From contig OZ076409.1 of NCBI GenBank assembly GCA_964187785.1, forward strand, positions 14,634,001 to 14,698,000: a stretch of DNA of 64,000 bases, in the 5' to 3' direction. Positions 23,436-48,838 of the stretch are shown here, piece after piece. Positions within the stretch are counted from its first letter, which is position 1. Every line of letters begins with the position of its first letter. Made by a program: the position numbers and the translations under genes. The notes beneath the pieces are model-generated. The model was given only the letters and a program-made list of their open reading frames with translations. It searched no databases and was not told where the DNA came from. This stretch comes from Amphiscolops sp. MND2022. Lineage: Eukaryota.

Positions 23436-26400
23436 TTCCCCCTCCTCCGGGTGGATTCGGTTTCGGGTGGAGGTAACTGCTGGTGGTTCCGAATTGATCG
23501 GTTGAAGTTTTGGTATTCTGCTATTTTCCGTATTTCACGGTTGCTTCTTTCTTCAGTTTGTTGTTGACTCGGTTGGCTCGCTTGGTTTTCCTGTAACATA
23601 TAATTATTTATTTTTCTTTTATTATTATTTGTAGAATATGGGATACCGCCTAGTTTTTCGGTTTGTCTTGCATTGGGTATTCTTTTCGATTTTCTCACCG
23701 TTAGTTGTGGTTCGCTTATTAGTGGATTCGTTTTTATACCTGTTTCTGGGGTTAGGTTAGTTTCTTTGGGTAGTAGTTGTAGTTCGTCGTCTATGTTGGC
23801 ATGGACAGGCTTTCCTTCGCTAGTATTGTAGCATTGGAATTCGTCGTCGGATACTATGCTCAGGTCTAGATCCATCGGTTTTCCCGCCGACTTGTCTGGG
23901 CTCGTGAACTGGCCTCTTTCGTTGCGCGGTTGTTCTTTCCTTTTCAGCCAATCTGCGCTGTTTTCTGTATTCTCCGGTTTCGGTGCTTCTTTTCTACGGT
24001 ATAGACAAGTATTTTCCATCGTCTTTGAGCATGTTGGTTTTTTAGCCGTTGTTGTCAATCTGGTATTGATCCTTTTTGTCGGAGTTGTTGTAGCCTGAAA
24101 GGGTATCGGGTTAGATATTAGCTTCCTATGAAGGATTTTGTTCTTGTCCGTGGTTACCGTATGTTTGGTCCCCGAGACTGCAGTTAATGGTTTGTTTTTG
24201 AATTTGCTTCCAAGTGAGCATTTTGTATGTGTTTTTTCAAAAAAGGTGAACGGGTAATTCGTATTTTTCTCTCTACTTACCGTATTTGACGGTTTTTGTT
24301 TTTGGGTGAAGGTCATCCCCCTCCGGTATTTCGGGTCATTTGTCTTCTTCTTTGACATCACCAAGTGGTCGGTAATCTCGCCGGCTGAGTTGCGGGTGAT
24401 GTAGACTGATAAGTCCTTGGAATTGACTGAAATAGAATTTTTTAGATTAGATAGTTTTGTTCCAGGTTCTCGCCCGAGGTGTAGTTCGAACGGGGTTTTC
24501 TTTATTTCAGAATGTGTGGTGAAACGGAGGACGTAGAGGGTTTTATTTAGGCTTTCGCGTAAATTTTTTGTTTCTTCTAAATTTGTTTTTGTTAGATTCT
24601 TCAGTGATTGGATAGTTCTTTCCACCAATCCCGTGCCAGTATGTAGGTTTGGTGTTCCGTATTTGCGGATTATATTATATTCTTTGCAAAAGCTTTTGTA
24701 TTCTTTTGAGATAAAAGCGCTGCCGTTGTCCGATTTAGTTGTCTTCGGTACTCCGTATACATTTACATATTCCCGTAGGAATGTTATTACTGTATCGTGG
24801 TTGGTATTTTTGCAAATTTTCGCTACCGGCCAACGGCTATTTTTGTCTACGGCTACTAAGATGAAAGGAGAGGAATCTAAATGTTTGCTATTTAAGTTTC
24901 CCGTAAAATCAATTTGGATTTCTTCTCCTGGGTATTTTCGCGGATCAAGTTTAGATTTTTCGGTACTGGGTAGTTGGGTTTTTAAATTCTTACCGGCATT
25001 CAGGCAAGCGGAGCAGGTTTTGGCCTTCTTCTCGATGTCTGCTCTCATGTTTGGCCACCAAAAGATAACTGCGTCGTTGCACATTTTATTTATTCCTGGG
25101 TGGCCGAAGTGAAGTGCATTGAGTGCGGCGTAGCGTAAGCTTTTGGGGATAATGATACGGTCGTCCACCATTGTTATTCCCCAGCGGTGGGTCAGTTTCT
25201 TTGCTACTTGTTTGTAATCGTCTGGGATGGCTTGTGTGTTGTTGTCTTCGATGCAGCATTGAACTTCGATTAGGTCTGGGTCTGCTGCCGTTTCCTTGAT
25301 TAGTGTTTCCAGGTCAAGCATAAAATCGAGTTCTGCGGCTCTGATGTTATCTTCTTGTTGTCGGTTTCTAGGGGCTTTCGTCGCGATGACCTTGTTGATG
25401 CGTACGTAATGTACGGCTATCTCTTCTATTGGGCCTTCGCGGTATTCTTGAACGGGGATCGCTGGGTAAGACCCTGGTTCTTCCGTTATTACCGGTTCTT
25501 CTGGTGTTGAAGAGACCGTGGATTCGGTGTCCGGTGTGTGCTTCTGTGTTTTTGTAGTTTCCGTGTTGATTTCCGATGATGTGCCGGATGCTTGTGGAAT
25601 TTCATCTCCAAAGTTTTTAAAGTAGCCGCCCCCGATGTGTGTAACTCGGTTTTCTTCTTTCCTTCTCAAACGGATGTCAATGCGTTTGATTTCTTTTCTA
25701 TCTACGTCATCCGGTCTTCTTGGAAGAAGTATTTCTCTCTCGAGTTTCTTGTGCCAGTGGTATCGCATATGGCCCGGTCGTGTTAATTCGATTCTTCTTT
25801 CTACTAGTTCTTGTGTCTCCGGTGAATTGTCTCTTCTGTTAATAATCTTCATGATTTCGTCATCGGCTCCCCAGTGGTATTTAAGTTTATCGTTTAAAGC
25901 AAATCGGTCCGGGATTTGACGGTTATTGTTATTGTTGTCCATTTTTGGTTCGCTGTAGGATTTGCAATTATCGTGAATGGCGTTGTTAATCTGATTAGCG
26001 GTCAAATTGGAATGGTTTGTGTTTGTTTTGCTGTAGCGCGTACCAGTCCAGCTGTAGCGCGTACCATGCATGTTTGCCGTTTCGCTGTTTTCTGATTGGT
26101 CAAAAATCCGTCCAATTCTGCCATTTACCGTGGCTAGTTGCGCGATGGCGTTGATGACGAATTCTTCTTCGTAATTTTCTTCCGGTTCAGCGGTTTCCGT
26201 AGGGTTACGGCTAATGAAATCGGTGAATTTGATTTCTTTTCCGGCAGTGTGTTTTAATGATATGTCAAAATGGTTTAGTCTGTCTAACCACCGTGTTAAT
26301 CGGGCGCTATATTGTTTGTTGGTTTTGTTTCTCTTTAATAGTGGTTCCAAAGCCTGGTGGTCGGAGAATAATTGAACCTGTTTTCCGTATAGGTGAAATC

Positions 26401-28879
26401 TGAACCGTTCAAGGCCCCAGACTACTGCTAGTAGTTCTAGTTCACCGACGGAATATTTCTTCTCTGCATCATTGAGATAGCGACTGGCATATGCAATAGC
26501 TTTCAATTCGCCGTTGTGTTGGCGTTGCCATAGCGCTATGCCTAAACCGGTGTTGCATGCGTCGGTTGTAACAATGCTTTCTTTGTTACCGTTGTAGTGT
26601 GCTAAACACGGTTGTGTTGTCAATTCTTTTTTCAGGTTGTTGAAGTCTGTGTTTCGTTCTTCTGTCCACTCCCATTTTATTCCTTTTTTCAGTAGTTGTC
26701 TCATATTGTCCGTCTTTTCGGATAGATTTGGTATAAATTTTGCAAAATATTGTATTGCTCCCAAAAATGATTTTAGGGTTTTTGTAATTGTCGGTGGGTT
26801 CAATTTGTTGATTGCGTCCGTTTTTTCTTTGTTCGGTCGGATTCCATCTTGTGATATGGTTTGTCCAAGCCATACCGATTCTTTTTGATAAAATTTTGAC
26901 TTCTTTTTGCTGGCCTTATAGCCTTCGTTTTCCAGTTTTGTTAGGACTGATTCTAATTTTTGTGTATGTTGTTCCTTCGTTCCGCGTGTCATGATTATTA
27001 TATCGTCCAGCCATACTGGTATTTGGTGGCCGAGGGTTCGGTCTATTTTCTCCTGGAAGATGGTGGGTATGTCGGCTGGTCCGTAAAAACCCTTTAGGAA
27101 TCGGTAATATCCGTTGATTTTCTCTCCTGTAATGGCAAAGTTACAGTGTTTGCTTGTTTCCGGTGATAGTTTCATTTGTCCGTAAGCATAGTCCAAATCT
27201 ATGATTGATATCCAGATTGGGTCTAATTCGTTTTTTGATAATTCGGAAGAGATTTGGTTTAGTAGTTCATCCATGTTTGGCATGTGTGGTCTTTTCTTTA
27301 TACAGCTGTCGTTTAGTTTCCGCGCGTCAAGTGCAATTTTGACCGTTTTGTCCTTTTTTACCGTAATTACAACGGGGGATACGAAGCAATCTTCTTCGAT
27401 TGTTTCTAGTCTTTGTAAATGTCCGGATTTTATTAATCGGTCTAGTTCGTTTTTGACGTCATCTTGTAGGTGGTACGGTATTGGTCGTGCTTTTTGTTGT
27501 ATTGGGTAACAGCCCGGTTTTATCTGTATTTTCACCTCCGCGTTCTTGATAGTGTGGTTTGTTTCAAATAGTTTCTTGAATTTCGCATGTATCTTTGTTG
27601 TTTCTGATTGGTCGGTGTTGTTGTCCAATGAAATTTTGTTGATGGTAATTGGCAGTTGTTTTAGCCAATTTACTCCCAGTAGGGGTGTGATGTCGGTTCT
27701 CTTTGTGATTAGTGATGGTAATTTAATGTATTTGCCGTTATACTCGGTGTCTACCCATACTTTTCCCAGGAATGTGATTTCGTTTTTGTTTACATCTTGA
27801 TATCTCTCTTTTAACGGTTGGATATTTTCTGGGTTGTATAGTGTGGGGTTGTTCGGCATGATGGTGACCGGAGAGCCGGTATCGATAATAAACTTTTGGT
27901 TTTTTCCGTTTATTTTTATTTGGACACCATAGTGGTCGTTGTTGTCCGGTGTTATTTTGTTGATTCGTGTGATTTGGAGTATTTCCTCGGGTTCACTGTT
28001 TTCGTCTTCTTCTTCGGAGGTCATATCTTCCAAGTATTTGATTCTTTTTGTTTTGTTTGGTTTCGTGCGGCATACCCGGGCGAAGTGTCCCGTTCTCTGG
28101 CAGTTGTTGCATTTTACCGTTTTCGCCGGGCAGTTATGTTGGGGTGTCCAATTTTGTTGTCCGCAGAATCCGCAGTTGTTTTTCTTTTGTTTTGGTTGTT
28201 CTCGATATTGTTTTGTTTGGATTTTTTGGATCGGTTCTTGTTTTATTTCTTTGTCTTTCGCCAATGCGGGTGGTATGGTTGATTGTTTGTGTCGGCGGTC
28301 GTAGCTGTCTTGTGTGATAAGTTCTATGGTGGTTTTCAAGTTGAGAGTTTTTTCACGGATCAGTTTTTCCCGAAGTTTTTTGTCGGTTATGCTTGTGATA
28401 AATTTCGATATGAGTAAGTCTTCTTGTTTGATATCTTTGAAGTCACATGTTTTTTCTAACGTTATCAGCTTTTTCCAATGTTCCTCGGGTGTTTCGTTTT
28501 CCTCTTGCTTGGCCCAGAAGAAATCTCCACGGCTGTGGTATGTATTTCTTTTGGGCATATAGTATTCCCGGAACAGTTGGATTAGCTTGTCGGTTTTTAT
28601 TGTGTCTGGGTCCGTGTTGAATTCTCCTTTCGTGATGATTTCAATTGCCGACGGTCCGGCGCCCCAAATGAAATCTTGTCTGATTTCCGGTTCTTTTGTG
28701 TCCCATGGGTCACCGGTAGGAACCGTATCGTCGGTTAATATCGGTTTGATATCTATGTTGTGGATTCTTTTTATATAATGTCGAAATCTCTCTGTCCATT
28801 CTTTTGGTGTGTATATTTTCTTCCCGTCAAGTCCGGTGTCTTCTAGGTAAGGTAGTTGTATCTTGGTTGCCACGGCCAT
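23384..28879 (-). CDS. gag-pol: Gag-Pol polyprotein in one frame, 1831 aa
   Basis: Knuckles CGFCG...HNC and CNNCQRTGHFARVC; protease IIDTGS; RT IDLDYAYGQ and WLDD; RNase H TDAC, ELELLA, SDH; integrase HFGH...CSAC, IDF, SDNG, VER; stop lies inside the 3' LTR. Confidence 0.96.
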   Translation of the reverse strand: MAVATKIQLPYLEDTGLDGKKIYTPKEWTERFRHYIKRIHNIDIKPILTDDTVPTGDPWDTKEPEIRQDFIWGAGPSAIEIITKGEFNTDPDTIKTDKLIQLFREYYMPKRNTYHSRGDFFWAKQEENETPEEHWKKLITLEKTCDFKDIKQEDLLISKFITSITDKKLREKLIREKTLNLKTTIELITQDSYDRRHKQSTIPPALAKDKEIKQEPIQKIQTKQYREQPKQKKNNCGFCGQQNWTPQHNCPAKTVKCNNCQRTGHFARVCRTKPNKTKRIKYLEDMTSEEEDENSEPEEILQITRINKITPDNNDHYGVQIKINGKNQKFIIDTGSPVTIMPNNPTLYNPENIQPLKERYQDVNKNEITFLGKVWVDTEYNGKYIKLPSLITKRTDITPLLGVNWLKQLPITINKISLDNNTDQSETTKIHAKFKKLFETNHTIKNAEVKIQIKPGCYPIQQKARPIPYHLQDDVKNELDRLIKSGHLQRLETIEEDCFVSPVVITVKKDKTVKIALDARKLNDSCIKKRPHMPNMDELLNQISSELSKNELDPIWISIIDLDYAYGQMKLSPETSKHCNFAITGEKINGYYRFLKGFYGPADIPTIFQEKIDRTLGHQIPVWLDDIIIMTRGTKEQHTQKLESVLTKLENEGYKASKKKSKFYQKESVWLGQTISQDGIRPNKEKTDAINKLNPPTITKTLKSFLGAIQYFAKFIPNLSEKTDNMRQLLKKGIKWEWTEERNTDFNNLKKELTTQPCLAHYNGNKESIVTTDACNTGLGIALWQRQHNGELKAIAYASRYLNDAEKKYSVGELELLAVVWGLERFRFHLYGKQVQLFSDHQALEPLLKRNKTNKQYSARLTRWLDRLNHFDISLKHTAGKEIKFTDFISRNPTETAEPEENYEEEFVINAIAQLATVNGRIGRIFDQSENSETANMHGTRYSWTGTRYSKTNTNHSNLTANQINNAIHDNCKSYSEPKMDNNNNNRQIPDRFALNDKLKYHWGADDEIMKIINRRDNSPETQELVERRIELTRPGHMRYHWHKKLEREILLPRRPDDVDRKEIKRIDIRLRRKEENRVTHIGGGYFKNFGDEIPQASGTSSEINTETTKTQKHTPDTESTVSSTPEEPVITEEPGSYPAIPVQEYREGPIEEIAVHYVRINKVIATKAPRNRQQEDNIRAAELDFMLDLETLIKETAADPDLIEVQCCIEDNNTQAIPDDYKQVAKKLTHRWGITMVDDRIIIPKSLRYAALNALHFGHPGINKMCNDAVIFWWPNMRADIEKKAKTCSACLNAGKNLKTQLPSTEKSKLDPRKYPGEEIQIDFTGNLNSKHLDSSPFILVAVDKNSRWPVAKICKNTNHDTVITFLREYVNVYGVPKTTKSDNGSAFISKEYKSFCKEYNIIRKYGTPNLHTGTGLVERTIQSLKNLTKTNLEETKNLRESLNKTLYVLRFTTHSEIKKTPFELHLGREPGTKLSNLKNSISVNSKDLSVYITRNSAGEITDHLVMSKKKTNDPKYRRGMTFTQKQKPSNTVSREKNTNYPFTFFEKTHTKCSLGSKFKNKPLTAVSGTKHTVTTDKNKILHRKLISNPIPFQATTTPTKRINTRLTTTAKKPTCSKTMENTCLYRRKEAPKPENTENSADWLKRKEQPRNERGQFTSPDKSAGKPMDLDLSIVSDDEFQCYNTSEGKPVHANIDDELQLLPKETNLTPETGIKTNPLISEPQLTVRKSKRIPNARQTEKLGGIPYSTNNNKRKINNYMLQENQASQPSQQQTEERSNREIRKIAEYQNFNRSIRNHQQLPPPETESTRRRGNVECRGHRLNYFRQRVV

Positions 28880-28938
28880 TATTGATATTCGTTGGTTGAT
28901 AAAAATGTTTCGTGTTTTAAGAAGGTTTGGTAGAATAA

Positions 28939-28956
28939 AATCTTGCTACTGCGCCA
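28939..28956 (-). promoter_or_regulatory. Primer binding site, probably tRNA-Ser (imperfect)
   Basis: TGGCGCAGTAGCAAGATT immediately after the LTR; close to the complement of tRNA-Ser 3' ends (...ATCCTGCTGACTGCGCCA). Confidence 0.65.
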
Positions 28957-29161
28957 TGTTAAGATCTATTGATTTACTATAAAACAATGTTGGTGGCAAA
29001 GAGTTTTCATTCAACTATTTCGTGTCAAAGTAACAAATGTAGTGAGATCTATGTAATGCAATGCAATAACATAAATAGGACAGTAATTAGAGTTTGTTAT
29101 CAAATATGTTTAAACAACTCTCTGTCTACAGTAGTTCAGTCTATGACCTCTACATTCCACA
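28957..29161 (-). repeat. 5' LTR of Mag-like element
   Basis: TGTTAAG...TTCCACA; 4 substitutions versus 23231-23435. Confidence 0.96.
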
Positions 29162-34920: not shown

Positions 34921-35047
34921 AGATTCTTTTCGGTCAGAATCACACAGTATATAACGAACTTGTTATAACTAATCTTTGTTTCTCATGCCCTTTTTCATTT
35001 TGAAATGATTCTATATTGATCCGTACTCCGCTAAATTATATAGACCC

Positions 35048-37002
35048 TGTAGAAATTTTTGCTAGAGGGTTGGAGAGAGATCCCAATGGCTCGATTCTAA
35101 CAGAAAGGTTTAGTTTTTAGTGAGTAAGTTTCGTCCACGTATCGCGTATTCTTTTCACAAGGTCTCTCCAGTGCTCAAGTTTCGACTCCAAAAAAACACT
35201 ATGGAAAAGTTGCTTGCAATTAATACTCTAATTCAGGAATTACCTGGATAATACAAGTCGAAGATTTCCACAGTACGTAACTACTCAATCAAGCAATAAC
35301 AATAGCACAGTAGGTGAATGAATTATATACAATAACTCAACAGAACTGTGCCCAAAATCACGATTCACTCAAAGATTTCCAAGTCCCGGACTTGTAACTT
35401 ATTCGCTGCTCTCACAAAGCAGTAAGTCAAAATCGATCTCGAGTAGGTTTCTTGCCCGCACGGCTCAACTTACTCTTAACTTCGTAATCGTTCTTCTTTC
35501 TCAATTCGGTTCTCCTTTTTCCTCCCTAAGATGTTTATTCGTCAGCCGCATTTTTGTTGTACCGATGTCGCTCTTTTATTTGCATGCTTTTTACTTCATG
35601 TAGTTCCATTCCTTTTATGGCATGGCAGCTCTCTAGTTATGTTTCGGCCAGACATTCTTCGCCGCCAACGACAAATACTTCAACAAAGATTGTACAAAGT
35701 TCACATTTCGATAATAATTCAAGTCCACCAAGATATTTCCAATATCGAGACAATCGTTCAATGACCTTCAATTACATGGTTTACATGCTCTATATGCGTA
35801 AGGGGTACTTTTCTGTCATTCTGAGTGCAATACATCGCGAATCGTTCCGCCTGACTGAAATGCATAAATTATCGCTTAAAGACACTGATTTACATGTTTT
35901 ATTGTATGTTTTCCTATATGTTCCGGGGTTGCATCTAAGATGACCTTGAGGTCCATCTGTGACCTTGAAGTTATTTGTCATCATCTAATGTCACTACATG
36001 CCAAGTTATATCGTCCTAGGGTCAATGGTCTTCGAGTTACATGATATGCGTATCTTTTGTTTACTTAAGGCGGCTACCCCCGCATGGGTTACAAATACGG
36101 TTTCGTTCACGTTGGTAATCAACTACATTCATCGTTCCGGTTCGTTTGATATATTACAAGCCAAGGTCAATTGTCATTTATCGGTCCGGCCCGTGCGTCC
36201 GGTCCCGCGTGCCTTAAACAAACATTACTCCGCGCGTGGTGAACTGATTAATGTATCTTTCATGTATATTACTTAGGGTTACTAGGCGAACATATTGGGT
36301 AAGTTTCATGATCGTCGGGTCATCCGGTGGCTATTTACATAACATTCGGGGTTTATTTACTTAGGGTCCGTGCTCCTCCTACGCGCGTCATAGGGTTCCG
36401 AAAACATGCGCAAAGGGCTTAGTATCGGGTGGGCTATCAATTCTATATATAATACGACTTATTCCGTGCTTGGCCGATGAGTTCATAGGGGGGTCGACCT
36501 AGGTCACTTCCGGTGCTAATAGCCCGGGACTGGGGGGTCTCGGCTCGGTTCCGTTTTTATGGGCGTGTGGCATAACAGCTCAATTATCCGTGTGCCAAAT
36601 TTCAAGTCTCTACGATAAGTAGTCTTTGAGAAAAACCTGACTGGGGGGGTTTTTCGATTTTGTGACGATTGATTTTTTCATGGTGTATCTTAGAATATTT
36701 TCCCTCGAAAGTGGGACTTAGTAAAATTCGCTCTAAGTGATCAATTTTGACTCAGCCGATTCAAAATCTTCCATCGTTGACGTCACTTGCTAACTTATTA
36801 ATTTTTGCCTAAGAAGTTTCGTTTACAAAGTAAATACCTAGTTTGCCAAATAAGCTATATCGAAGCATGCTATTGTCAGCCTCTTCAGGTGTTTTCACTA
36901 TTCTGGCGGTCTAAAAACATGATTAACATAGTTCCGTCTATCATATGTACTTCGCGCAAAAGCAATGGGTTTTCGTGGACGCCAAAAACTAAAAATTCCA
37001 CA
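35048..37002 (-). repeat. 3' LTR of env-bearing element
   Basis: Copy of 45756-47710; by eye one substitution (36261 C vs 46969 A) and two homopolymer length differences; PPT adjacent. Confidence 0.97.
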
Positions 37003-37014
37003 CTCTTCCCTTCT
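37003..37014 (-). promoter_or_regulatory. Polypurine tract
   Basis: Minus strand AGAAGGGAAGAG directly abutting the 3' LTR. Confidence 0.9.
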
Positions 37015-37759
37015 GGACTTTTATTCTCCTGAATAAACTTAGCGGTATTGTCGTTGGCTCTGGTTTTCGAAAGTTAGGTTATGAATAAGTTTAAGACGAT
37101 TCTGAACGCGTTCTAATTATTGCTTCTTTTGTTATTTCGAGAGTGAAGTTAACAAATCCGTGTCTATTTGTACTATTCGACCTTGACGCCCAAGGAATTT
37201 ATTTACCGACGAAGACCTACTCTCCTAATAAGGCACAGCTTTATCGAGTTACCGAGTTCTTAGACTAATATTAGCACATAAATTAGTGGAGGCATCTCGG
37301 TAAATCAATCATCCATAATCGTAACGAGATTCTCGGGTACATCAAAGAGCATCAACAAATGAACAATTGGGATAATAAATACGTCAGGTTAATACAACAT
37401 GATAATGACCTTTCGTTTAGGGCCAAAATGGCTGAATGCCTCCTTAAAATAAATTGAAAGCATAAGAATCACAATCTTCCGCTAAAAGATCCAGAGATTT
37501 TCCTATTCAGAAAAATTGACGACCTTCATGAAGGCAGGATAACTTGACACTTACCACATATATTTGAAACCTGTTTATAGTCGTCAAATTTTCTTCGTAG
37601 GTACTCAGAATTGGGTATAACTAAAGGTTAGTGTAGCAAATTGGGGGGGGGTAATTAAGGAGTTAGGAGGGGGGTCGTTCTAGGTTAATAAATTGGCATC
37701 TACCCAGTTATCGTTATAATTAGAGGTTAATACTTTTTCTTTATATAATTACTCCTTTC

Positions 37760-39997
37760 TCAGTTTACTCCGGAAGTCTTCACGATACTGTCTGCTTTCT
37801 GGGAATTGGTTGGTGCACCGATGTTCCCACTGGAAGTATCCTCTTTCCTTTCCGGTCGACTGCCGTCCGACCCTGTACCGGTCATCTCTTTCATCTCGGT
37901 ATTGTTGGTTTCCTCCACAGTGCTATCGCCTGTCCGGCCTACAATCACCTTCCCTTTTTCCTGGGCACGCTTGCATGGGCAAAGGGTAAGCATCATCTCG
38001 AAAAACTGTCGGGGCCCCAGGTAGATCATCACTCCGACAACCGCTAAGAGGAAAAGTGCCAACAGCGTCAACAGGACAGTGCCGACCACCGGGTGTGCCA
38101 CTTCTTTCCAATGGAACGGTGCATGTCTTTTCAGGATGGCTTCCGCAAAGGGACGGGAAATCTTCTTTATTTCCTCATCGTCAATTTCGTCTTCCGGTAG
38201 CTCGATTAAGTTCATTTTCAGGCCTTTTAACAGGTCTTCATGAGCCACCGCTCTATATTCCTTTTTAAACTTCCAATCCGGATTCTGCTCTTGAATTTCC
38301 TCGAAGAGTGTAAACATTGAGGCCAACACGGTATTCTGTTTAATCGTTATATGCAGGCCTGCTTCATGATGACACTTCCTGGGGTCTGGGTTGAGCACTA
38401 GGCTTCCATCCGGGGTCTCAATGCGCCCATTGCAGGCTGGCCGAAGGAGGCAACTCTTACATCCGCGGATCCTTTCCCCTTCAACGGCTCGTCCTCCCGT
38501 GTAGTTATATAGTTGGTAGGCAGTACTTCGAGATGTCAACAAATAGGTGGAATCACCCAGGTATTCAGCTACTGGCTCTTCCGGTAGCGCCACCACTTCT
38601 TGAGGGCATAACTTCAGTGCAGTATTCTGGAGGTTAAAAAACAGGCTCGCCAGGCAGGAGGACTTACTGCTCCGTGACATTGCTACTGGTCTTAAGCATA
38701 ATCTGAGTCTCGATGTTCCCTGGCAGTGGGTGGTCAGTTGTTGTTCCGTAGCCTCCGCGAAACTATCTCTCCTATTCGATTGCAGGAACTGGTTTTGTTT
38801 GAAAATGTATCTAGTGGCTGTGTTACCATCATCGATCGGCTGGGGGATCGCCACAGCTTTGTACACTCGATATGCGCCGCTCGCAAAATGCATCGGAATA
38901 TTTAATAGTACGTTTATAGACTCGTCTGTCAGGACCACGTTTTCCACCAGTTCGAATCCGTAATACGCCGATAATTCAGTTCGGGGAATCGCCTCTTGCA
39001 TTCCGTCTACTTGAATGTTGTTCAGTACCTTCAGGAGTGCCTTGGGAGGAATAAGGGCTGCTGGGATGAATCCCTTCGCTAGCGCAGCCAAAGCATCGTC
39101 CAGAACATATCCGAAGTTGTGAAGACCCACTTGATAATCCAAAATTTCTGCCAATAGCGTATCAAAGTATTGCGTGTGATTCATCATGGAAAGCGTCCAC
39201 TGTGCAGCCTCGACAAATTCCCTCTCGCGCTTCCCGCAGATGTCGGCGATCTTGTCCCAGGAGGTTCCGTCTGACAGTCGATTAAATACTGCCCTCAAGT
39301 TTCGAAAGTTTTCGTTAGCGTCTTTTGCCAACACTCGGACTCTTCCTTGAGTTCGGTTCAAAGAGTGACCCAACAGGTGTATTCTCTCTCCAGTTTCCAA
39401 AGTGACCGTTCGGGCGAGATCATCCACTTCTGATAGTCGTTTGGCCAATTCGTCATATTTACCCGAGTCCCCACACATGAAGGTGAAAGGACAAAAATCG
39501 TCCAAAAAGCGAGGTAGTAGAGTGATTGCGGCTGCCGTGGCAGCCACTCCGGCCAACAGTACCGTCAAAGCTCCTCGTCTGTCCCTGTCCGGATGAATGT
39601 CCCTATGCCTTATGAAGGTCTGTGCCCGCTCGCGCATCTCTGCCAAATCGTCCATTACCTCCAGGTATGCCTTCTCGACGTTTTTCAGGCCCAGAAAAGT
39701 CACATTAAATGTGGCATCCGTGATCTCTTCATTTGCGCAAATATTCCCTCCCCAGGGCTTCCACGATTTACGGGATTTATACTGGAACTCTTGGAAAACT
39801 ATATCCAGGTGGGTGACATTGAGGGCTGCCGGCGAAGGGAAAGGTATAGTTATCCACGCTGCCTCCAGTGAACTGGCTATGATCACAGGCGGTTCTGGGG
39901 TGAATACTACTCCAGCAGTATTGTTATATGTTAAAGTGTTTGCCGTTGGGAAGCCCCAACAAACGAGCAAAAGAAGCGAAAGAAGTTTTAGTATCAT
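37760..39997 (-). CDS. env: Envelope glycoprotein, class I F-type fusion protein, 745 aa
   Basis: Signal peptide, RDRR furin-type site (aa 138-141), hydrophobic fusion peptide, heptad-like helix, Cys-rich ectodomain, N-glycosylation sequons, TM near aa 637-661, cytoplasmic tail; third ORF before the 3' LTR. Confidence 0.92.
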   Translation of the reverse strand: MILKLLSLLLLVCWGFPTANTLTYNNTAGVVFTPEPPVIIASSLEAAWITIPFPSPAALNVTHLDIVFQEFQYKSRKSWKPWGGNICANEEITDATFNVTFLGLKNVEKAYLEVMDDLAEMRERAQTFIRHRDIHPDRDRRGALTVLLAGVAATAAAITLLPRFLDDFCPFTFMCGDSGKYDELAKRLSEVDDLARTVTLETGERIHLLGHSLNRTQGRVRVLAKDANENFRNLRAVFNRLSDGTSWDKIADICGKREREFVEAAQWTLSMMNHTQYFDTLLAEILDYQVGLHNFGYVLDDALAALAKGFIPAALIPPKALLKVLNNIQVDGMQEAIPRTELSAYYGFELVENVVLTDESINVLLNIPMHFASGAYRVYKAVAIPQPIDDGNTATRYIFKQNQFLQSNRRDSFAEATEQQLTTHCQGTSRLRLCLRPVAMSRSSKSSCLASLFFNLQNTALKLCPQEVVALPEEPVAEYLGDSTYLLTSRSTAYQLYNYTGGRAVEGERIRGCKSCLLRPACNGRIETPDGSLVLNPDPRKCHHEAGLHITIKQNTVLASMFTLFEEIQEQNPDWKFKKEYRAVAHEDLLKGLKMNLIELPEDEIDDEEIKKISRPFAEAILKRHAPFHWKEVAHPVVGTVLLTLLALFLLAVVGVMIYLGPRQFFEMMLTLCPCKRAQEKGKVIVGRTGDSTVEETNNTEMKEMTGTGSDGSRPERKEDTSSGNIGAPTNSQKADSIVKTSGVN

Positions 39998-40458
39998 ACC
40001 GTTTTCGAATTAAATAATTTAATAAGTGATGCCAACTTAGGAACCTTAAGAACGGCACTGTTTATTCCTGAGGTCCCGCCCAAACAAGACGGTCATCATT
40101 CCTTCATTCAAAGGTGAGACGGCTTTTAAGTCTAGACGACTAAGGTACGTTTACTTTCAATGTTGACCATTGCATCATTCAGTGTATCCTGCGTATTTAC
40201 CGGACGTGCTCACCTTTGAAGTCAGTAAATAGGTTATTTATCCTGTGGTATTAGTAAAGCAAACACCCAGGATACGTGGGTAATCAAGATCATGGGGTGG
40301 AATAAAAAAAACAATTTGCTGGGGTTTTAAGAACGCAAAAAAAAAATAATAATAAAAAAAATTAATAGCGCACCTCAATCGTTCAACGGGGGGGGTCTTC
40401 CTTTTTAACATGGGGTTGTTTGAGGAGTTAGTTTTTAGTTTGTGAATATCTTACTGGT

Positions 40459-43400
40459 TCATTCATCTATTCCGAACCTTTGCGTGGGTTTTCGACTGCG
40501 CTGCGGGTAACGCTGCTGGTCTCCGGGTTGCTCCACTTGGGTGTCATCTAAGGGTTCGGGGTTTGTAACATCAGCAACAGCATCGTCCACAGGGTTGCCG
40601 GGGGTATGGGTCGCTTCATCGACTTGCTGGGTTGATTTGTCTGCTCGCGTGGGGGTCGGGTAGCTGCACCCCGTAACTCTGGTTGATTCATCTAATGTTT
40701 CCTTTCGCCCAGTTTCGCTCTCTTCTTCGAACATCGGCCCCAAATGGAAGTCCTGGTCGAGCCAGAGGTCACGTTTCAACCTATCGTACTTCCGGACCGT
40801 CTGCCCAGCTATACGGCGGGTCTCAGCCTCTGTCTTTGCGGCAATGCCTGCCGACTTCGAAGGATCTTCGTGGTCTGGTTCGTCCAATAAATCTTCCTCA
40901 TCCACATCGTCGAAGAAATTCTTAGATCGATACGGGTTCGGTCTGCTGGGTCGCTCGTCAACTGGTTCGCTCACAAAGGCTTTCAGCATGTTGAAATGGA
41001 CAATCTTCCATTTGTCCTCTTTTCCTTTCTTCGCGATCTTGTAGTTAACTTCTGACGTTTGTTCCAAGATCTCCCAAGGTCCGTCCCACGGTAGGTAGAA
41101 TTTTCTCGATTTGGCCTTGTGGGGGGACATCAGCCAGACTTTCTCCCCTTCTGCATAATTCCGGCCATAAACCTTCTTATGGTACCGGTCTTTCTGACGT
41201 TCTTGATTAACTCCCAGGTGACTTCTGGCGGCGCTATGGGCCTCGTGGAACTTACGGTCGAGGTCGTCCACGAAGTCGGTGCGGTCCATCAGTTCGTCAT
41301 GAGGGCGGGGGTAAAACAGGTCGATCGGGTACTGACACTCTTGTCCATAGACCAGCGCGAAGGGGGTAGCCCTTGTCGTCCTGTGCACAGTTGTGTTGTA
41401 AACGAAGTTCAAGTAGGGGAGAACCTCATCCCACACTTGCGGGTTATCGCTGCAGTACTTCGACACCATGTCCGCAATTACCCGATTGTGACGCTCCACT
41501 TGACCGTTCCCCTGTGGATGGTAGGGAGAAGTCCTCGTTTTGTCTATCTTCAGTAGCTGGCACATTTCTTGTATGACTCGACTCCCGAAGTTCGTTCCCT
41601 GGTCTGTGTGAAGACAGTCGGGCACTCCAAAGCGCAGTATCCAGCCCGTAACTATTGCCTCCGCGACGTCTTGTGCTTCAGTCTTTACCAAGGGTACCGT
41701 AACTACGAACTTCGTGAAACAATCTGTCATTGCCAGGATGTATTTGGCTCCAGTTTTCGTTGCTTTGGTCACCGGACCCAAGATGTCCGCGGCAACCGTG
41801 TGGAAGCGAATTCCCACCTTTCGGGGTTGTAACTCGGCGATATTTTTCTTCCCGGCCACTGAACGCGCAGCACAAGGTACACACCATGAGATTCGTTTTT
41901 CAACATCTCGTCTCATGGATGGCCACCAAAATCTCTGACGGATTCGCAGGAGAGTCTTTTCCAGCGCGAAGTGCCCTCCGCTCATCTGCGAAGAGTGCAA
42001 CTGCTCCAGTATCTCTTTACGAGCTTCGAATGGGACTATTAATTGGACTTGATCCTGTCCACTCTCTGCACTGGCCCAATGACGATACAACAGCCCGTTC
42101 TTTACAAAAAGCTGACGCCAGAGATTCCAGTACGCCAAGGCTTCCTCTCCCAAGGACACTACTTCTTTCTGTGTTGCCACTCTAGTGCCCAGTTCTGTTT
42201 GGTGTGGTTTATTCTTCACGTCCGCCCATTCCAGGACTGCTCTGATGGCGGGGTCTGCCCATTGAGCCTTCGATATGTCGTCGGGCGAGGATTTCCACGT
42301 GATCTGGGCTTCTTCCGGACTGGTGACTTCCGTCACGGTCGCAACTCGGTCGGATGCACCCAGTTCTTTCAGTGCCTGCTCCATCGTCAGGGGCTCGGGG
42401 CAAGAGCCCATCAGCTCTTCCTTTTCTCCGGGGAGCCATTCTGGTTCATCAGAGCTCATGCGGGACAGTCCGTCCGCGTTGCCATGTTTGTCTCCGCTCC
42501 GATGGACTACTTTAAAATTATACTCCTGCAGTGTTTGTAGCATCCGAAATGTCTGGCCGTCTGCGTTCTGCCGAAACAGCCATCGTAAACTGGCGTGATC
42601 CGTGCGAACAACGAATTCGGTGCCCCATATGTATGGTCGAAACCACTTCAGGGCCTGCACTACCGCTAGGGCTTCTCGCTTTGTTGTCGAATACATGCTT
42701 TCGGTCTTCGACAGCACTCTGCTCGCGAACACAAGTGGCCTTTCATCTCCATCTATTACATTGGATAACACCGCACCCAAACTCACATTACTCGCGTCCG
42801 TATCGACCACAAACGGGCTTTTATAATCTGGATACTGCAGCATTGGTGCGGTCGTGAGTTCTAGTTTCAGTCTTTCAAATGCCACTTGGCAATCTTCGTT
42901 CCACTCGAAGCGGGCATTCTTCTTCGTGACTGCGTGTAAGGGTCGGGCTATTTCCGCAAAATTCCGAATAAATCTGCGATAGTAGCTGCAGAACCCCACA
43001 AACGACCTCACGTCTGTCACATTCTTCGGCACTGGCCACTCCTTTACTGCTTTTACCTTGCCCGGGTCAGGGGATGTGCCATCAGCTTGGATAGTGTGTC
43101 CCAAGTAGTCGACCTGCTTTTGGAAAAACTTGCACTTCTTGGGTTTCAGCCGAAGGTTCGCTTCCCTCAGGGTCTCGAAGGTAATTCTCAAGTTCTGCAT
43201 GTGCTGCTCCACGTCTCCACTGTACAAGAGGACGTCATCTAGGAAGATCAGGACTCCTTTGTAGATGTACTGGGCGAACAAGTTATTCATTAATCGTTGG
43301 AATGTGCCAGGAGCGTTGGTCAACCCGAAAGGCATCCGTACATACTCGTAGAGTCCACCATCTGGAGTAACAAAAGCCGTTTTGTGTCTATCTTCGGGCG

Positions 43401-44670
43401 CAACTGGAACTTGCCAGTATCCACTTGCCAAATCCAGGGTGGAGAAAAGCTTTGCGCCGTTCAACGCGTCAAAGGTCTGCTCAATCTTTGGGATAGGGAA
43501 CGCGTCTTTGACGGTGACTTCATTAAGCCTTCGGTAATCTACACAGAATCTCCAACTGCCGTCCTTCTTTCTGGCTAATACAATCGGGGCACTGTACGGG
43601 CTGTTGGAATGTTGTATGACACCTCGTTTTAGCATGTCTTCCACCTCCTGTTGCACAATCGGGAGTTTTGCCGGGGCTATTCGGTGTGGGGGTATTTTGA
43701 TGGGGTCGCTGTCCCCTGTCTCGATGTGGTGTTCCGCCACGTCCGTACAACCCAACTCGTCATCATTGAGCGCAAAAACGTCTCTGTATTCAGTCACTAA
43801 GGCTGCTAAGACCTCCCGTTCCCGACCTGTGACGTTTTCGGCGGAGAGTGCTAAGATTTTCTCCACGTCTTGCTCCAGTGTGGGGAAGCACGTCGTGGGA
43901 GTCGTCTCAACGCGGGGTTCTTGAACTACCCTAACACGATCGGCTTCCTGGTTTTCAGTGTCATCTGACTGCTGGTGCGGGATCTCCTCGTGTCCAATTG
44001 AAACTTCAGGTTTCTGCTCCTCCACACCGTCTCCACTGATTTGGTCTGCGTTCGAGTTTTTTGATGGCTCCTCTGGTTCCGTTTCTCTGAGTCCTCGGAT
44101 GCGTCGAATCTGCTCGACTCGGAAACCCACGATAGAGCCTTCTCCTGGTCCGGTCCAGAACTGTTTGGTATTGAAATCCAAGTTTGATTTGTGATTGTTC
44201 ATAAATGCGAGCCCAAGGATAATGGTCGGGTTAACGTCGTGCATTACTAAAAAGTTTACTTCTTCGTCGATTGCCCCCACAACTATTCTAACTCGGGCAC
44301 GTCCGACGACGGCCATTTGTCTCCCGTCTGCTGTCTCCAGGCGTCCGTCATACCTCTCTAATTCCGGGAAACGATCCAGTTCGTAGAGTGCATTTAAGTT
44401 TATTAGGTTTACTGAAGCTCCCGTGTCCAGCAGGGCGTCTACTTCTTTCCCAGCCACCTTGACTCTGGTGATGGCGCTGAGTGTCCCACCCTCTGGTGTC
44501 AAACTTGGGTCTTCCGGGTCTGGATCGTTTGAGTTTAAGGGACGTGCTTTGTCTGCCATCGCTTCAGCCTTCGCCTTCACGAGGGATGGGATGATTTTGA
44601 AATTTGCAGTTTTAAATTCGGCCGGGACAAAACCTTCTTTCACTGGCTTCCCGGCCCTTCGGAGTTTAAA
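40459..44670 (-). CDS. pol: Pol polyprotein PR-RT-RNaseH-IN, probably made as Gag-Pol by -1 frameshift
   Basis: Protease LLDTGA; RT LDLASGYWQ, MPFGL, FLDD; RNase H TDAS, REALA, TDH; integrase H-x6-H...CVPC, TDQG, VER; GPY/F-like WDGPW; no internal stops. The ORF-track start at 44721 lies upstream of the slippery site. Confidence 0.96.
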   Translation of the reverse strand, partial: FKLRRAGKPVKEGFVPAEFKTANFKIIPSLVKAKAEAMADKARPLNSNDPDPEDPSLTPEGGTLSAITRVKVAGKEVDALLDTGASVNLINLNALYELDRFPELERYDGRLETADGRQMAVVGRARVRIVVGAIDEEVNFLVMHDVNPTIILGLAFMNNHKSNLDFNTKQFWTGPGEGSIVGFRVEQIRRIRGLRETEPEEPSKNSNADQISGDGVEEQKPEVSIGHEEIPHQQSDDTENQEADRVRVVQEPRVETTPTTCFPTLEQDVEKILALSAENVTGREREVLAALVTEYRDVFALNDDELGCTDVAEHHIETGDSDPIKIPPHRIAPAKLPIVQQEVEDMLKRGVIQHSNSPYSAPIVLARKKDGSWRFCVDYRRLNEVTVKDAFPIPKIEQTFDALNGAKLFSTLDLASGYWQVPVAPEDRHKTAFVTPDGGLYEYVRMPFGLTNAPGTFQRLMNNLFAQYIYKGVLIFLDDVLLYSGDVEQHMQNLRITFETLREANLRLKPKKCKFFQKQVDYLGHTIQADGTSPDPGKVKAVKEWPVPKNVTDVRSFVGFCSYYRRFIRNFAEIARPLHAVTKKNARFEWNEDCQVAFERLKLELTTAPMLQYPDYKSPFVVDTDASNVSLGAVLSNVIDGDERPLVFASRVLSKTESMYSTTKREALAVVQALKWFRPYIWGTEFVVRTDHASLRWLFRQNADGQTFRMLQTLQEYNFKVVHRSGDKHGNADGLSRMSSDEPEWLPGEKEELMGSCPEPLTMEQALKELGASDRVATVTEVTSPEEAQITWKSSPDDISKAQWADPAIRAVLEWADVKNKPHQTELGTRVATQKEVVSLGEEALAYWNLWRQLFVKNGLLYRHWASAESGQDQVQLIVPFEARKEILEQLHSSQMSGGHFALEKTLLRIRQRFWWPSMRRDVEKRISWCVPCAARSVAGKKNIAELQPRKVGIRFHTVAADILGPVTKATKTGAKYILAMTDCFTKFVVTVPLVKTEAQDVAEAIVTGWILRFGVPDCLHTDQGTNFGSRVIQEMCQLLKIDKTRTSPYHPQGNGQVERHNRVIADMVSKYCSDNPQVWDEVLPYLNFVYNTTVHRTTRATPFALVYGQECQYPIDLFYPRPHDELMDRTDFVDDLDRKFHEAHSAARSHLGVNQERQKDRYHKKVYGRNYAEGEKVWLMSPHKAKSRKFYLPWDGPWEILEQTSEVNYKIAKKGKEDKWKIVHFNMLKAFVSEPVDERPSRPNPYRSKNFFDDVDEEDLLDEPDHEDPSKSAGIAAKTEAETRRIAGQTVRKYDRLKRDLWLDQDFHLGPMFEEESETGRKETLDESTRVTGCSYPTPTRADKSTQQVDEATHTPGNPVDDAVADVTNPEPLDDTQVEQPGDQQRYPQRSRKPTQRFGIDE
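44620..44670 (-). promoter_or_regulatory. -1 programmed ribosomal frameshift signal
   Basis: T_TTA_AAC in the gag frame (44664-44670), 7-nt spacer, 8-bp stem GGCCGGGA/TCCCGGCC; pol is in the -1 frame. Confidence 0.88.
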
Positions 44671-45662
44671 GCCTCCGACTTCTTTGGGCATGCTCGTGCA
44701 AAGTGGCCCTCTTCGCCACATTCATAACAAGCAAGTGTCTGGCGCGATGAGTGGGGCTTGTTACCACTTCCACCCTGGTTGTTGAAATTGTTCCCGTAGC
44801 GATTGGTGCCTTCATTCGGGTTGAAGAGCTTCTTTTCCTGAGCGGGGGTTGTTGCAGCTTGTGGGTACGGCATCGGAAGTACGGACGACATGAATCTCGA
44901 CATCATGTTGGTCAGGTTATTCATGGCTTGACTGACTTCGTTCATCTGTTGCCTCATCTCGGTCATCTCGGGGTTGCTGCTACCTGTCGTCGCCTCCTGA
45001 GTCACCCTGAGCGCTGCCACTCGTTTCGTGGACCTGTTTCGTATGGACCTGGTGATTGTCTCCAGATCGACAGCTCTGTTTATAGTGTCCGTGAATGACC
45101 TGGAGTCCTCCCTCAGCAAGACCTCAAGCAGCTCTGGGTCGAACAGCCCCTCTATGAACCTTTCGCGGAAGTGCTCATCCCGCTGCTCTGCGTTCAAATT
45201 GGCAAACACTTGCGTCCCCACACTCCGAACTCTGCGCGCAAAGTCCCTCAGGCTTTCGCCTTCTTTTTGCACCAAAGCTTTGAATTCACTTCTTCCCATT
45301 CTGTCGTTCCTCAGTACCCCTAAGGCCCGGTCCAAGTGCTCGAACAAATTTTGGAGAGTCGGGGCCGGCTCACCTTCTGCGGGTTCTTTCAACGCCGCTG
45401 GTGCTGCATGGAACTCATCCAATGCGTGGCCGTTTAGACAAACTGGCAAAGCGTTGATGGCTTGAATCTGGGTCCATCTGTTCGCCGCTGCCACCGCTGT
45501 AAAGTGTGACTTCCACTGAACCCAATTTGGATACGCGTTCGAGGGGAATCTGTCGGGTCTGAGGGCACCATTATGGAAGATACGGTTCTGCTGATCGTTC
45601 AACACTTGCCCGACCGCCTGCATGGCCACCTCCAACAAATCTCGTTTCTCTTCTTGATTCAT
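44640..45662 (-). CDS. gag: Gag (capsid-like region plus one CCHC zinc knuckle), 340 aa
   Basis: First ORF after the PBS; Q-x-x-G-E-S-L major-homology-like segment (QKEGESLRDF); knuckle CYECGEEGHFARAC. Confidence 0.93.
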   Translation of the reverse strand: MNQEEKRDLLEVAMQAVGQVLNDQQNRIFHNGALRPDRFPSNAYPNWVQWKSHFTAVAAANRWTQIQAINALPVCLNGHALDEFHAAPAALKEPAEGEPAPTLQNLFEHLDRALGVLRNDRMGRSEFKALVQKEGESLRDFARRVRSVGTQVFANLNAEQRDEHFRERFIEGLFDPELLEVLLREDSRSFTDTINRAVDLETITRSIRNRSTKRVAALRVTQEATTGSSNPEMTEMRQQMNEVSQAMNNLTNMMSRFMSSVLPMPYPQAATTPAQEKKLFNPNEGTNRYGNNFNNQGGSGNKPHSSRQTLACYECGEEGHFARACPKKSEALNSEGPGSQ

Positions 45663-45736
45663 CGTGTTGTCGGGGGATAACAGCTAATCCCAGTAAAACA
45701 ATTCCAAAATAACAGCGATACAGAACTACGAAAATT

Positions 45737-45754
45737 GCCCACCCAGGAGCGCCA
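45737..45754 (-). promoter_or_regulatory. Primer binding site, tRNA-Asn type
   Basis: Minus strand TGGCGCTCCTGGGTGGGC, 1 nt from the LTR; complement GCCCACCCAGGAGCGCCA resembles the 3' end of animal tRNA-Asn(GTT). Confidence 0.85.
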
Positions 45755-45755
45755 C

Positions 45756-47710
45756 TGTAGAAATTTTTGCTAGAGGGTTGGAGAGAGATCCCAATGGCTC
45801 GATTCTAACAGAAAGGTTTAGTTTTTAGTGAGTAAGTTTCGTCCACGTATCGCGTATTCTTTTCACAAGGTCTCTCCAGTGCTCAAGTTTCGACTCCAAA
45901 AAAACACTATGGAAAAGTTGCTTGCAATTAATACTCTAATTCAGGAATTACCTGGATAATACAAGTCGAAGATTTCCACAGTACGTAACTACTCAATCAA
46001 GCAATAACAATAGCACAGTAGGTGAATGAATTATATACAATAACTCAACAGAACTGTGCCCAAAATCACGATTCACTCAAAGATTTCCAAGTCCCGGACT
46101 TGTAACTTATTCGCTGCTCTCACAAAGCAGTAAGTCAAAATCGATCTCGAGTAGGTTTCTTGCCCGCACGGCTCAACTTACTCTTAACTTCGTAATCGTT
46201 CTTCTTTCTCAATTCGGTTCTCCTTTTTCCTCCCTAAGATGTTTATTCGTCAGCCGCATTTTTGTTGTACCGATGTCGCTCTTTTATTTGCATGCTTTTT
46301 ACTTCATGTAGTTCCATTCCTTTTATGGCATGGCAGCTCTCTAGTTATGTTTCGGCCAGACATTCTTCGCCGCCAACGACAAATACTTCAACAAAGATTG
46401 TACAAAGTTCACATTTCGATAATAATTCAAGTCCACCAAGATATTTCCAATATCGAGACAATCGTTCAATGACCTTCAATTACATGGTTTACATGCTCTA
46501 TATGCGTAAGGGGTACTTTTCTGTCATTCTGAGTGCAATACATCGCGAATCGTTCCGCCTGACTGAAATGCATAAATTATCGCTTAAAGACACTGATTTA
46601 CATGTTTTATTGTATGTTTTCCTATATGTTCCGGGGTTGCATCTAAGATGACCTTGAGGTCCATCTGTGACCTTGAAGTTATTTGTCATCATCTAATGTC
46701 ACTACATGCCAAGTTATATCGTCCTAGGGTCAATGGTCTTCGAGTTACATGATATGCGTATCTTTTGTTTACTTAAGGCGGCTACCCCCGCATGGGTTAC
46801 AAATACGGTTTCGTTCACGTTGGTAATCAACTACATTCATCGTTCCGGTTCGTTTGATATATTACAAGCCAAGGTCAATTGTCATTTATCGGTCCGGCCC
46901 GTGCGTCCGGTCCCGCGTGCCTTAAACAAACATTACTCCGCGCGTGGTGAACTGATTAATGTATCTTTAATGTATATTACTTAGGGTTACTAGGCGAACA
47001 TATTGGGTAAGTTTCATGATCGTCGGGTCATCCGGTGGCTATTTACATAACATTCGGGGTTTATTTACTTAGGGTCCGTGCTCCTCCTACGCGCGTCATA
47101 GGGTTCCGAAAACATGCGCAAAGGGCTTAGTATCGGGTGGGCTATCAATTCTATATATAATACGACTTATTCCGTGCTTGGCCGATGAGTTCATAGGGGG
47201 GTCGACCTAGGTCACTTCCGGTGCTAATAGCCCGGGACTGGGGGGTCTCGGCTCGGTTCCGTTTTTATGGGCGTGTGGCATAACAGCTCAATTATCCGTG
47301 TGCCAAATTTCAAGTCTCTACGATAAGTAGTCTTTGAGAAAAACCTGACTGGGGGGGGTTTTTCGATTTTGTGACGATTGATTTTTCATGGTGTATCTTA
47401 GAATATTTTCCCTCGAAAGTGGGACTTAGTAAAATTCGCTCTAAGTGATCAATTTTGACTCAGCCGATTCAAAATCTTCCATCGTTGACGTCACTTGCTA
47501 ACTTATTAATTTTTGCCTAAGAAGTTTCGTTTACAAAGTAAATACCTAGTTTGCCAAATAAGCTATATCGAAGCATGCTATTGTCAGCCTCTTCAGGTGT
47601 TTTCACTATTCTGGCGGTCTAAAAACATGATTAACATAGTTCCGTCTATCATATGTACTTCGCGCAAAAGCAATGGGTTTTCGTGGACGCCAAAAACTAA
47701 AAATTCCACA
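45756..47710 (-). repeat. 5' LTR of env-bearing element
   Basis: Plus strand TGTAGAAAT...ATTCCACA; copy of 35048-37002 at offset 10708; PBS adjacent. Confidence 0.97.
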
Positions 47711-48838
47711 GACCCTAGGTTACAAGAATCACAAATCTTGCAAAATTCTTCCGAGCATCTTGCCAACTTTGCATTTTTTACAAAAATCTTACAAGTTTGT
47801 ACAAGAATCGCAAATTTTGCAAATTTGTTACAATGTCGAACATTTCTTACAAGATTCTGATAACATTTCTGCAAAAATTGCATTTTTCCGTAAAAAATTC
47901 TTACAAAAAATGCGATGTGTAATTTCGACTAAAAATTCGTTCAAGACGGTAACATTCGTTCAATTTTCTGTCTTTTCTTATTAACATCTGCCCATTATTA
48001 TGGCCCGGGTAGCATTAAGGACGCTTTTCGGCACCGCATTTCCAGAAGTTCAGTTCTATCAACTAGTTCTTTTAATTGGCACTGCGAGTCATGTGGTCTT
48101 CAATTGGAATTATAAAATTTAAAATTAACCCATATATGGTCTTATCCCATAATTGATGTACCCCTGGTTGAAAATAAGTACAATTCTTGCCTCAAAGATT
48201 TTCGCCTCCCCTTTGACCAATTTTTTGCTCTGGGTAAATTATCATCTTTTCAAACGCAATTGTGTGGGGTTTGATTAACTCCGTGTGAATACACAGAATG
48301 CATAATTAGAGCCTTTTTTGATTATAGTTTATCTAGGCATTCGCAATTTATACGAAATATGCGAATTGCCATAATTTTGTGTAAATATCCGTTCTTAATT
48401 GCTTCGCTCAAAAGTTTGGAGCGATTGTGACGTAGTGAAATTTTGGATTCCATAGAAGTTATTGTCGACAAATTACAGAGAAGCATAATGCTAGTAATTT
48501 TGTTCAATTACGAATAATTTGAGAGTCAGCTATTTAGATAAACTCGTTCTTGGTCAAAGTCATTCAGGTCAAAGTTATTCATGTCTCAATGAATCAGGAA
48601 AATGAATGAGGGCCTTCCGATTCCCAAAAACGAAGGATCCCATAAAGTTTGAAATTATCCATTCTCTGACCCGGAAAGCTCTCGAGAAGTTGAAAATCTC
48701 CCAAAAATTCAGTCTCTGATATTTAAATTACGGATCAAGTTTATAACCCCAGTTTCTAACATCTGAAATTTTCTGCTTTGTTGTGTACTAGATAATAATT
48801 CATCATATCATAAACCATTGTGCATTGAAGTGTTCCAA

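Follow-up and report, generated by a model that had tools for sequence, protein, structure and literature searches.

A Ty3/gypsy element of 12,663 bp lies on the minus strand of the window (the whole stretch of 64,000 nucleotides analysed, from an acoel), between positions 35048 and 47710. It is very probably an intact, recently inserted element with an F-type env, likely copied in the manner of the errantiviruses, with an Env predicted to fuse particles into cells, and likely a derived recombinant. The element is of a known kind, in a phylum not previously surveyed, and its family has an unusual architecture. What is new is the host, an acoel, from a phylum missing among the names in the text and supplements of the principal survey published on elements of this kind. 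New are also the companions of the element in the same genome: sister copies carry an additional gene (ORF4) and an antisense gene borne by the LTRs (ORF5), and gag-only satellites share the PBS, the PPT and the frameshift signal.

Anatomy, copies and age of the element

The LTRs are bounded by TG...CA and accompanied by a TSD, a PBS and a PPT, as in other Ty3/gypsy elements (Table 1). The first-pass annotation had described all cis-acting and coding parts (TSD, LTRs, PBS, PPT, gag, frameshift signal, pol and env) as present and unbroken, and each of them was recovered in that state. The roughly 3 differences in 1,955 positions that it had counted between the LTRs are 1 substitution and 2 single-base indels, the latter in homopolymer runs. 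The TSD measures 5 bp in 21 of the 24 related elements tested, the script leaving the other three without a call. A pattern derived from the PBS has 386 matches across the genome, and ARAGORN identified a tRNA-Asn(GTT) at the match in five of the six loci taken.

Table 1. Position of the features of the element within the window.
Feature	Coordinates	Strand	Basis
Left TSD, GACCC	35043..35047	.	sequence
3' LTR, 1,955 bp, short 'W' type	35048..37002	-	LTR comparison
PPT-flanking segment and first ~206 bp of U3	36797..37059	-	sequence comparison
PPT, 12 nt, adjoining 3' LTR	37014-37003	-	sequence
env, 745 aa, F-type class I fusion protein, stop-free	39997-37760	-	profile and predicted fold
pol frame, 1,420 aa stop to stop, -1 relative to gag, stop-free	44721-40459	-	ORF and domain search
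-1 frameshift signal: UUUAAAC (44670-44664) and hairpin (~44656-44619)	44619..44670	-	sequence, folding against shuffles
gag, 340 aa, one CCHC zinc knuckle, stop-free	45662-44640	-	ORF and domain search
PBS, 18/18 nt complementary to host tRNA-Asn(GTT) 3' end with CCA	45754-45737	-	tRNA gene comparison
5' LTR, 1,955 bp	45756..47710	-	LTR comparison
Right TSD, GACCC	47711..47715	.	sequence

The pol frame encodes, in this order, a protease, RT, RNase H, an H2C2 domain, the integrase core (rve) and the integrase C-terminal domain, which is the PR-RT-RH-IN order of the Ty3 type. RVT_1, RT_RNaseH, Integrase_H2C2, rve and Integrase_p58_C all score above cut-off, and the bridge region comprises about 160 aa. 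The heptamer UUUAAAC is placed in the Gag frame 28 nt upstream of the gag stop, and the hairpin starts 7 nt further on (z -2.0; 5 of 200 shuffles equally stable). The in-frame heptamer with a downstream stem recurs in 27/27 loci of the short-LTR (W), long-LTR (L), sister-B and satellite (S) groups, one family among them having a stem of different sequence. Measured against divergent subfamilies, both genes are under purifying selection, with dN/dS of 0.04-0.06 in gag and 0.02-0.07 in pol.

A count of copies, one of the checks proposed at first pass, returned at least 28 matches to env in the genome. Sixteen of these 28 are at least 97% identical to the window env, and all 16 were examined and stand at separate sites. 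The gag, pol and env frames are all open in nine (one of them without an env start codon), and the remaining seven carry stops, frameshifts, deletions or rearrangements. By LTR type, eight of the 16 are W, seven are L (2.72-2.76 kb) and one is satellite-type. The W pairs differ by 0-2 substitutions (7/7 pairs), those of L copies and divergent subfamilies by 2-16 (7 scored of 9) and those of satellites by 0-7 (7 scored of 8). The initial description of a young, intact, env-bearing Ty3/Gypsy element is borne out by the anatomy, the F-type Env, the near-identical LTRs and the 16 close copies.

Near-identical LTRs and open frames could also be an artefact of assembly or of gene conversion, or the contig could be of non-acoel origin. 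Each of six other W-type copies has a distinct TSD and an LTR pair of its own, which argues against an assembly artefact. Furthermore, the copies are distributed over several chromosomes of 58-104 Mb, the PBS fits the tRNA-Asn genes of the same genome and the window contains zero N. An artefactual or foreign origin is, on this evidence, extremely improbable.

The assignment of the host is based on the mitochondrial COX1 of the assembly, which translates with the invertebrate mitochondrial code. Among named sequences two acoels match it best (75% and 73%), and names from outside the acoels attain no more than 67%. In a tree of 26 rows, a branch with 100/99 support sets 11 non-acoel rows apart from a group made up of the host, three named acoels and unnamed rows. 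A nematode host had also been considered; searches for Col_cuticle_N and SL1 returned nothing that bears on it either way, and COX1 favoured the acoels. The order of the mitochondrial genes agreed with none of the published acoel orders compared.

Env, satellites and the proposed copying cycle

The Env contains a signal peptide, a furin-type RDRR site (residues 138-141), a hydrophobic peptide (142-161), heptad helices, a Cys-rich beta region and a TM segment (~636-660). Searched as a single sequence, the window Env matched zero Pfam families and zero PDB sequences. Relatives are found among cluster representatives (408 at E<=0.001), and a profile was constructed from 67 aligned sequences, 10 from an earlier search and 57 of the 150 relatives listed. 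This profile matches the PDB entries 9w4d/9w4c, named 'fusion protein', with E 1.5e-11, and F0 glycoproteins more weakly. Pfam Baculo_F is found in 12 of the 67 relatives. An AF2 model from the 10-row alignment was discarded (pLDDT 51), and the model used has a pLDDT of 79 and a pTM of 0.69. Foldseek gave 221 matches to it at E<=0.001 (best E 7e-9), and the top ones listed are all pneumo-/paramyxovirus F proteins (RSV, hMPV, Nipah and related). Low TM-scores (TMq of 0.18-0.29, with an rmsd of 13-19 A) limit the support from the fold to the domain level.

Given the profile, Baculo_F and Foldseek matches, the Env is classed as F-type. Between the F and gB types, its signal peptide, furin site, fusion peptide, TM segment and homology place it in the former; by profile and predicted fold it is an F-type class I fusogen, with a predicted fusion activity. 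The presence of intact gag, pol and env together makes the element an env-carrying Ty3/gypsy, or 'errantivirus' in the broad sense given in the text of PMC13524379. Like gag and pol, env is under purifying selection, staying 70-72% identical across subfamilies at saturated dS. The conservation of Env shows that it was used at some time and says nothing of present cell-to-cell spread. The potential infectivity suggested at first pass is an inference.

In the proposed cycle, tRNA-Asn would prime reverse transcription and the -1 frameshift would yield Gag-Pol. Env would be produced from a subgenomic RNA, then cleaved at RDRR and trimerised, and the integrase would leave the 5-bp TSDs. No clear env splice acceptor was found in the window copy, and several ATGs are located upstream of env.

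The full elements are accompanied by gag-only satellites. The S satellites (~8.1 kb, with paired LTRs ~6.1 kb apart) have a divergent gag (57-63%, tblastn), no pol and no env, and their PBS and PPT are common to the full elements. They keep the frameshift site, which leads into an acidic ORF in the place of Pol (409-459 aa in 6/9 loci). In the S2 satellites Gag and protease form a single 834-aa frame, and the UUUAAAC heptamer was absent in 3/3 loci. Exact LTR-end/PBS junctions number 187 in the genome, and PPT junctions of the W/S type 259. On chromosomes C1-C4, 45 of the 79 PBS junctions pair with a W/S-type PPT, the distance being 2.8-5.5 kb in 41 pairs, 7.9 kb in one and that of a full element in three. 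Pol-less and env-less satellites thus outnumber the full elements on these four chromosomes (41/45 paired junctions).

This majority of satellites would also fit an element that moves within cells only, such as those of the acoel germline or its stem cells, Env being then a recently useful relic or an aid to rare animal-to-animal transfer. The germ cells of acoels derive from adult stem cells, and several copies that are otherwise young have a disrupted env, both of which point the same way. On the other hand, the satellites are able to borrow Env in trans, and across the subfamilies Env is both open and under constraint. It is open too (797 aa) in 3/3 examined copies of a distant sister family. 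Purely intracellular movement is considered possible, though unlikely, and errantivirus-like copying is preferred.

Accessory genes and the origin of the short-LTR copy

The L-type sisters have LTRs of ~2.75 kb, a sense ORF4 of ~175 aa upstream of the PPT and an antisense ORF5 of ~285 aa in the U3 of both LTRs. The two genes occur together in L and three further, more divergent subfamilies, and also in the distant env-bearing sister family. In the three copies of the latter that were examined, identity to the window family is 54-64% in Pol, 32-33% in Env and 28% in Gag. They share its Asn PBS; env is followed by a sense ORF of 215 aa, and the LTRs contain ORF5 as an antisense frame of 292 codons. 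The genome search for ORF5 returned 139 matches, with 136 of the 222 candidates scored. Purifying selection acts on ORF5 (at 90% identity its dN/dS is 0.16), which keeps its full length even at 67% and 37% identity; the constraint on ORF4 is weak (dN/dS 0.28-0.77).

The N-half of ORF5 matches Integrase_H2C2 weakly in 6 of 11 members (best E 7e-4). A direct match to PF02338 (OTU) was found in none of the 11, the ORF5 profiles gave nothing credible against the PDB, and the ESM Atlas gave no usable match for two ORF5 sequences. An OTU search of the genome yielded nine matches, four of which are copies of one ORF above the PF02338 cut-off. In the three loci taken with flanks, this ORF is carried by an LTR element with repeats of ~307 bp, in antisense orientation and at its 3' end; by its Pol motifs the element is probably BEL/Pao. 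When the ORF5 profile is compared with 4,682 sequences, the ORFs borne by these BEL/Pao-like elements are the best matches outside the family (E 2e-6, N-half), and true integrases reach E>=0.09 only. In hhalign, ORF5 and four BEL/Pao-like-borne rows are collinear through the OTU Cys motif with a score of 38.3, a value reached by 0 of 60 shuffles. Alignment to a mixed OTU set is weak (P 0.004, probability 9%). Among the aligned ORF5 rows the Cys of the catalytic motif is present in 10/11 and the C-terminal His in 7/11, and the GDG motif is not kept. By these profile comparisons ORF5 is homologous to the H2C2 zinc-finger and OTU protein of a BEL/Pao-like element of the same genome; its C-half is a candidate active protease, offered as a lead.

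The window copy has neither gene, and tblastn detected no remnants of ORF4 or ORF5 in it. The segment that comprises the PPT flank and the start of U3 (Table 1) stands where the sisters hold ORF4 and ORF5; it is common to the gag-only satellites and absent from the long-LTR sisters. The start of U3 matches S satellites only and R-U5 matches L only, the mid-LTR is a fine mosaic, and the internal genes are 99.0-99.6% identical to those of five L copies. Two other copies are chimeras, in which a satellite gag or LTR is joined to helper pol/env. The window copy, representing the short-LTR form, is thus likely a derived recombinant as judged from these sequence matches. Its internal genes and R-U5 would come from the long-LTR lineage. 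Its PPT and the beginning of its U3 would have been acquired from a gag-only satellite, probably when reverse transcription switched templates between RNAs packaged together. The swap of U3 would account for the loss of ORF4 and of the LTR-borne antisense ORF5, and both genes are likely dispensable for intragenomic copying, since this copy lacks them.

The direction of the swap, from satellite to W, is likely on parsimony. The reverse order would have the short-LTR form as ancestral and the long-LTR forms gaining ORF4 and ORF5 later. ORF5 alleles of 37% to 100% identity are shuffled among the subfamilies, so that the U3 cassette moves by recombination, as a later gain would require. However, an antisense ORF5 in the LTR and a sense ORF before it also occur in the distant family, and the W pairs are the youngest (0-2 against 2-16 substitutions). 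An ancestral short form is very improbable, and the loss of the accessory genes in a derived recombinant is the reading retained.

Relation to known elements

The survey of Chary & Hayashi (eLife 2026, PMC13524379) describes, in its text, 1,512 env-carrying gypsy elements from most animal phyla, 1,386 of them multicopy. Consequently, both the kind of element and its youth are ordinary. The initial remark that such elements are best characterised in insects understates the reach of this survey. A new lineage had also been suggested on account of the Asn primer and the very long LTRs. Both are weak grounds, given that Asn primers are reported for 3 of the 1,512 elements (two rotifer F-type and one nematode gB-type) and that 1,955 bp is the short form of the family, the sisters having 2.72-2.76 kb. 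A term search with positive control found no acoel or xenacoelomorph name in the text or the 7 supplements of the survey, and neither 'OTU' nor 'antisense' occurs in its main text. The literature searched showed no report of acoel env elements, and an earlier annotation, for instance in Repbase or Dfam, is possible. Text extracts of one acoel genome paper give 28% Gypsy and leave env unmentioned.

An acoel element closes a sampling gap at a node of the animal tree that is contested. The hypothesis of a pre-Cambrian origin of env-carrying gypsy elements predicts that acoel elements are placed on long, host-specific branches. The usual description of invertebrate errantiviruses gives them three genes, and here a conserved antisense gene borne by the LTR is copied twice per insertion. 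ORF5 is a candidate transposon-encoded counter-defence enzyme. An accessory gene in the LTR recalls the complex vertebrate retroviruses, such as MMTV with sag and HTLV-1 with hbz. A broader interpretation, which is put forward tentatively and may well be wrong, envisages an old and still-active acoel lineage of 'complex' retroviruses. In it, an LTR antisense zinc-finger/OTU-type ubiquitin/SUMO protease would counter silencing and would have been traded between gypsy and BEL/Pao, gag satellites would be co-packaged and recombine, and the youngest wave would have shed the accessory genes. Forms with and without accessory genes coexist with satellites in one genome, and their roles can be compared through expression and small-RNA data alone.

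The Drosophila errantiviruses (gypsy, ZAM, Idefix) share with the acoel element the three ORFs and an Env homologous to baculovirus F. They have 4-bp TSDs and LTRs of ~0.5 kb, against 5 bp and 2-2.8 kb in the acoel family. Insect errantiviruses in the narrow sense have an insect host and mostly Ser/Lys/Leu primers, and the present element differs in both its acoel host and its Asn primer. The ancient errantiviruses, as presented in the text of PMC13524379, resemble the acoel element in being young and multicopy and in having a Ty3/gypsy pol, the gag-pol-env order, an F-type Env provided with a furin site and a fusion peptide and, in some, an Asn PBS. The difference is the acoel host, absent from that survey.

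The bdelloid TelKA/TelKA2n (Rodriguez et al. 2017), as described in the text of PMC5408684, are likewise non-insect LTR elements with a paramyxovirus-F-like env, extra enzymatic ORFs common to unrelated retroelement types and a non-autonomous derivative. Their extra ORFs are ORF3s placed downstream of pol (GDSL, DEDDy, TM), whereas the acoel extra gene is antisense, LTR-internal and H2C2/OTU-like. For an OTU or an antisense accessory ORF in LTR elements, the literature search found two precedents only, Ginger1 and the plant Retand. The Ginger1 transposases (Bao et al. 2010), by the account in PMC2836005, combine a YPYY motif, an H2C2 finger and an OTU domain in one protein; ORF5 and its BEL/Pao-like homologue are without the DDE core and reside in LTR retroelements, not in DNA transposons. 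The plant Retand/Tat elements (Vicient 2025), according to the text of PMC11963269, are gypsy elements whose 3' end likewise bears a conserved antisense ORF, but that ORF encodes a TRP28 domain and is located between pol and the 3' LTR, not inside both LTRs.

Neighbouring LTR elements and the antisense LTR frame

The second gypsy element of the window, apparently unrelated to the main env-bearing element, is bounded by 205-bp LTRs of 98% identity and encodes Gag-Pol in a single open frame of 1,853 aa, in which a spacer of ~370 aa separates RNase H from H2C2. DUF1759, protease, RT and RNase H are present in the third LTR-element region, with the coding sequence spread across several frames. Both LTRs of the main element carry an antisense frame of 137 codons, and in several sister LTRs this frame is likewise open, over 98-171 codons. 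It matched no family and may be a chance opening.

Locations of the features in the window and elsewhere in the assembly (G000)
Feature	Location	Strand
Second gypsy element	window 23231-29161	-
Antisense LTR frame	window 35530-35943, 46238-46651	+
Third LTR-element region	window 59680-64000	+
Elements with H2C2+OTU gene (L126, L128, L129)	C1:86.42M, C3:92.75M, C6:50.33M	
OTU-containing frame (L119)	C13:25.89M	
Tandem copies	C1:40.65-40.68M, C6:26.10-26.13M	
tRNA array (L016)	C7:47.64-47.69M	
Mitochondrial contig (L078, L079)	C1929	

Related families and OTU-bearing loci

Two L-type (long-LTR) elements form one of the tandem sets with common LTRs; the other is an array in which satellite LTRs number four or more. 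The non-autonomous S2 elements (L108-L110) encode Gag-protease in one 834-aa frame with a weak Macro-domain match, below the cut-off (E 0.014), and their LTR carries a truncated ORF5, the antisense gene of L-type LTRs. In the sister env family (L100-L105; LTR spacing ~14.6-14.7 kb), RNase H and integrase are separated by an insertion that found no match in Pfam and that, by its motif, looks macro-domain-like.

A further LTR element, present at three of the listed loci and presumably BEL/Pao-like from its Pol motifs, contains an antisense H2C2+OTU gene that starts at the 3' LTR and retains intact catalytic motifs. An OTU domain also lies within an open frame of 2,244 codons at L119, possibly a Helitron-type element, the type being a guess.

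Mitochondrial contig and tRNA array

In the mitochondrial contig (14.7 kb), the opposite strand encodes cox2 and atp6, and the contig's gene order is unlike the published acoel orders compared, as far as the accessible portions of those sources give them. Many of the 386 genome-wide matches to the tRNA-Asn pattern, built on the main element's PBS, are located in a large tandem array of Asn, Lys and Ile tRNA genes.
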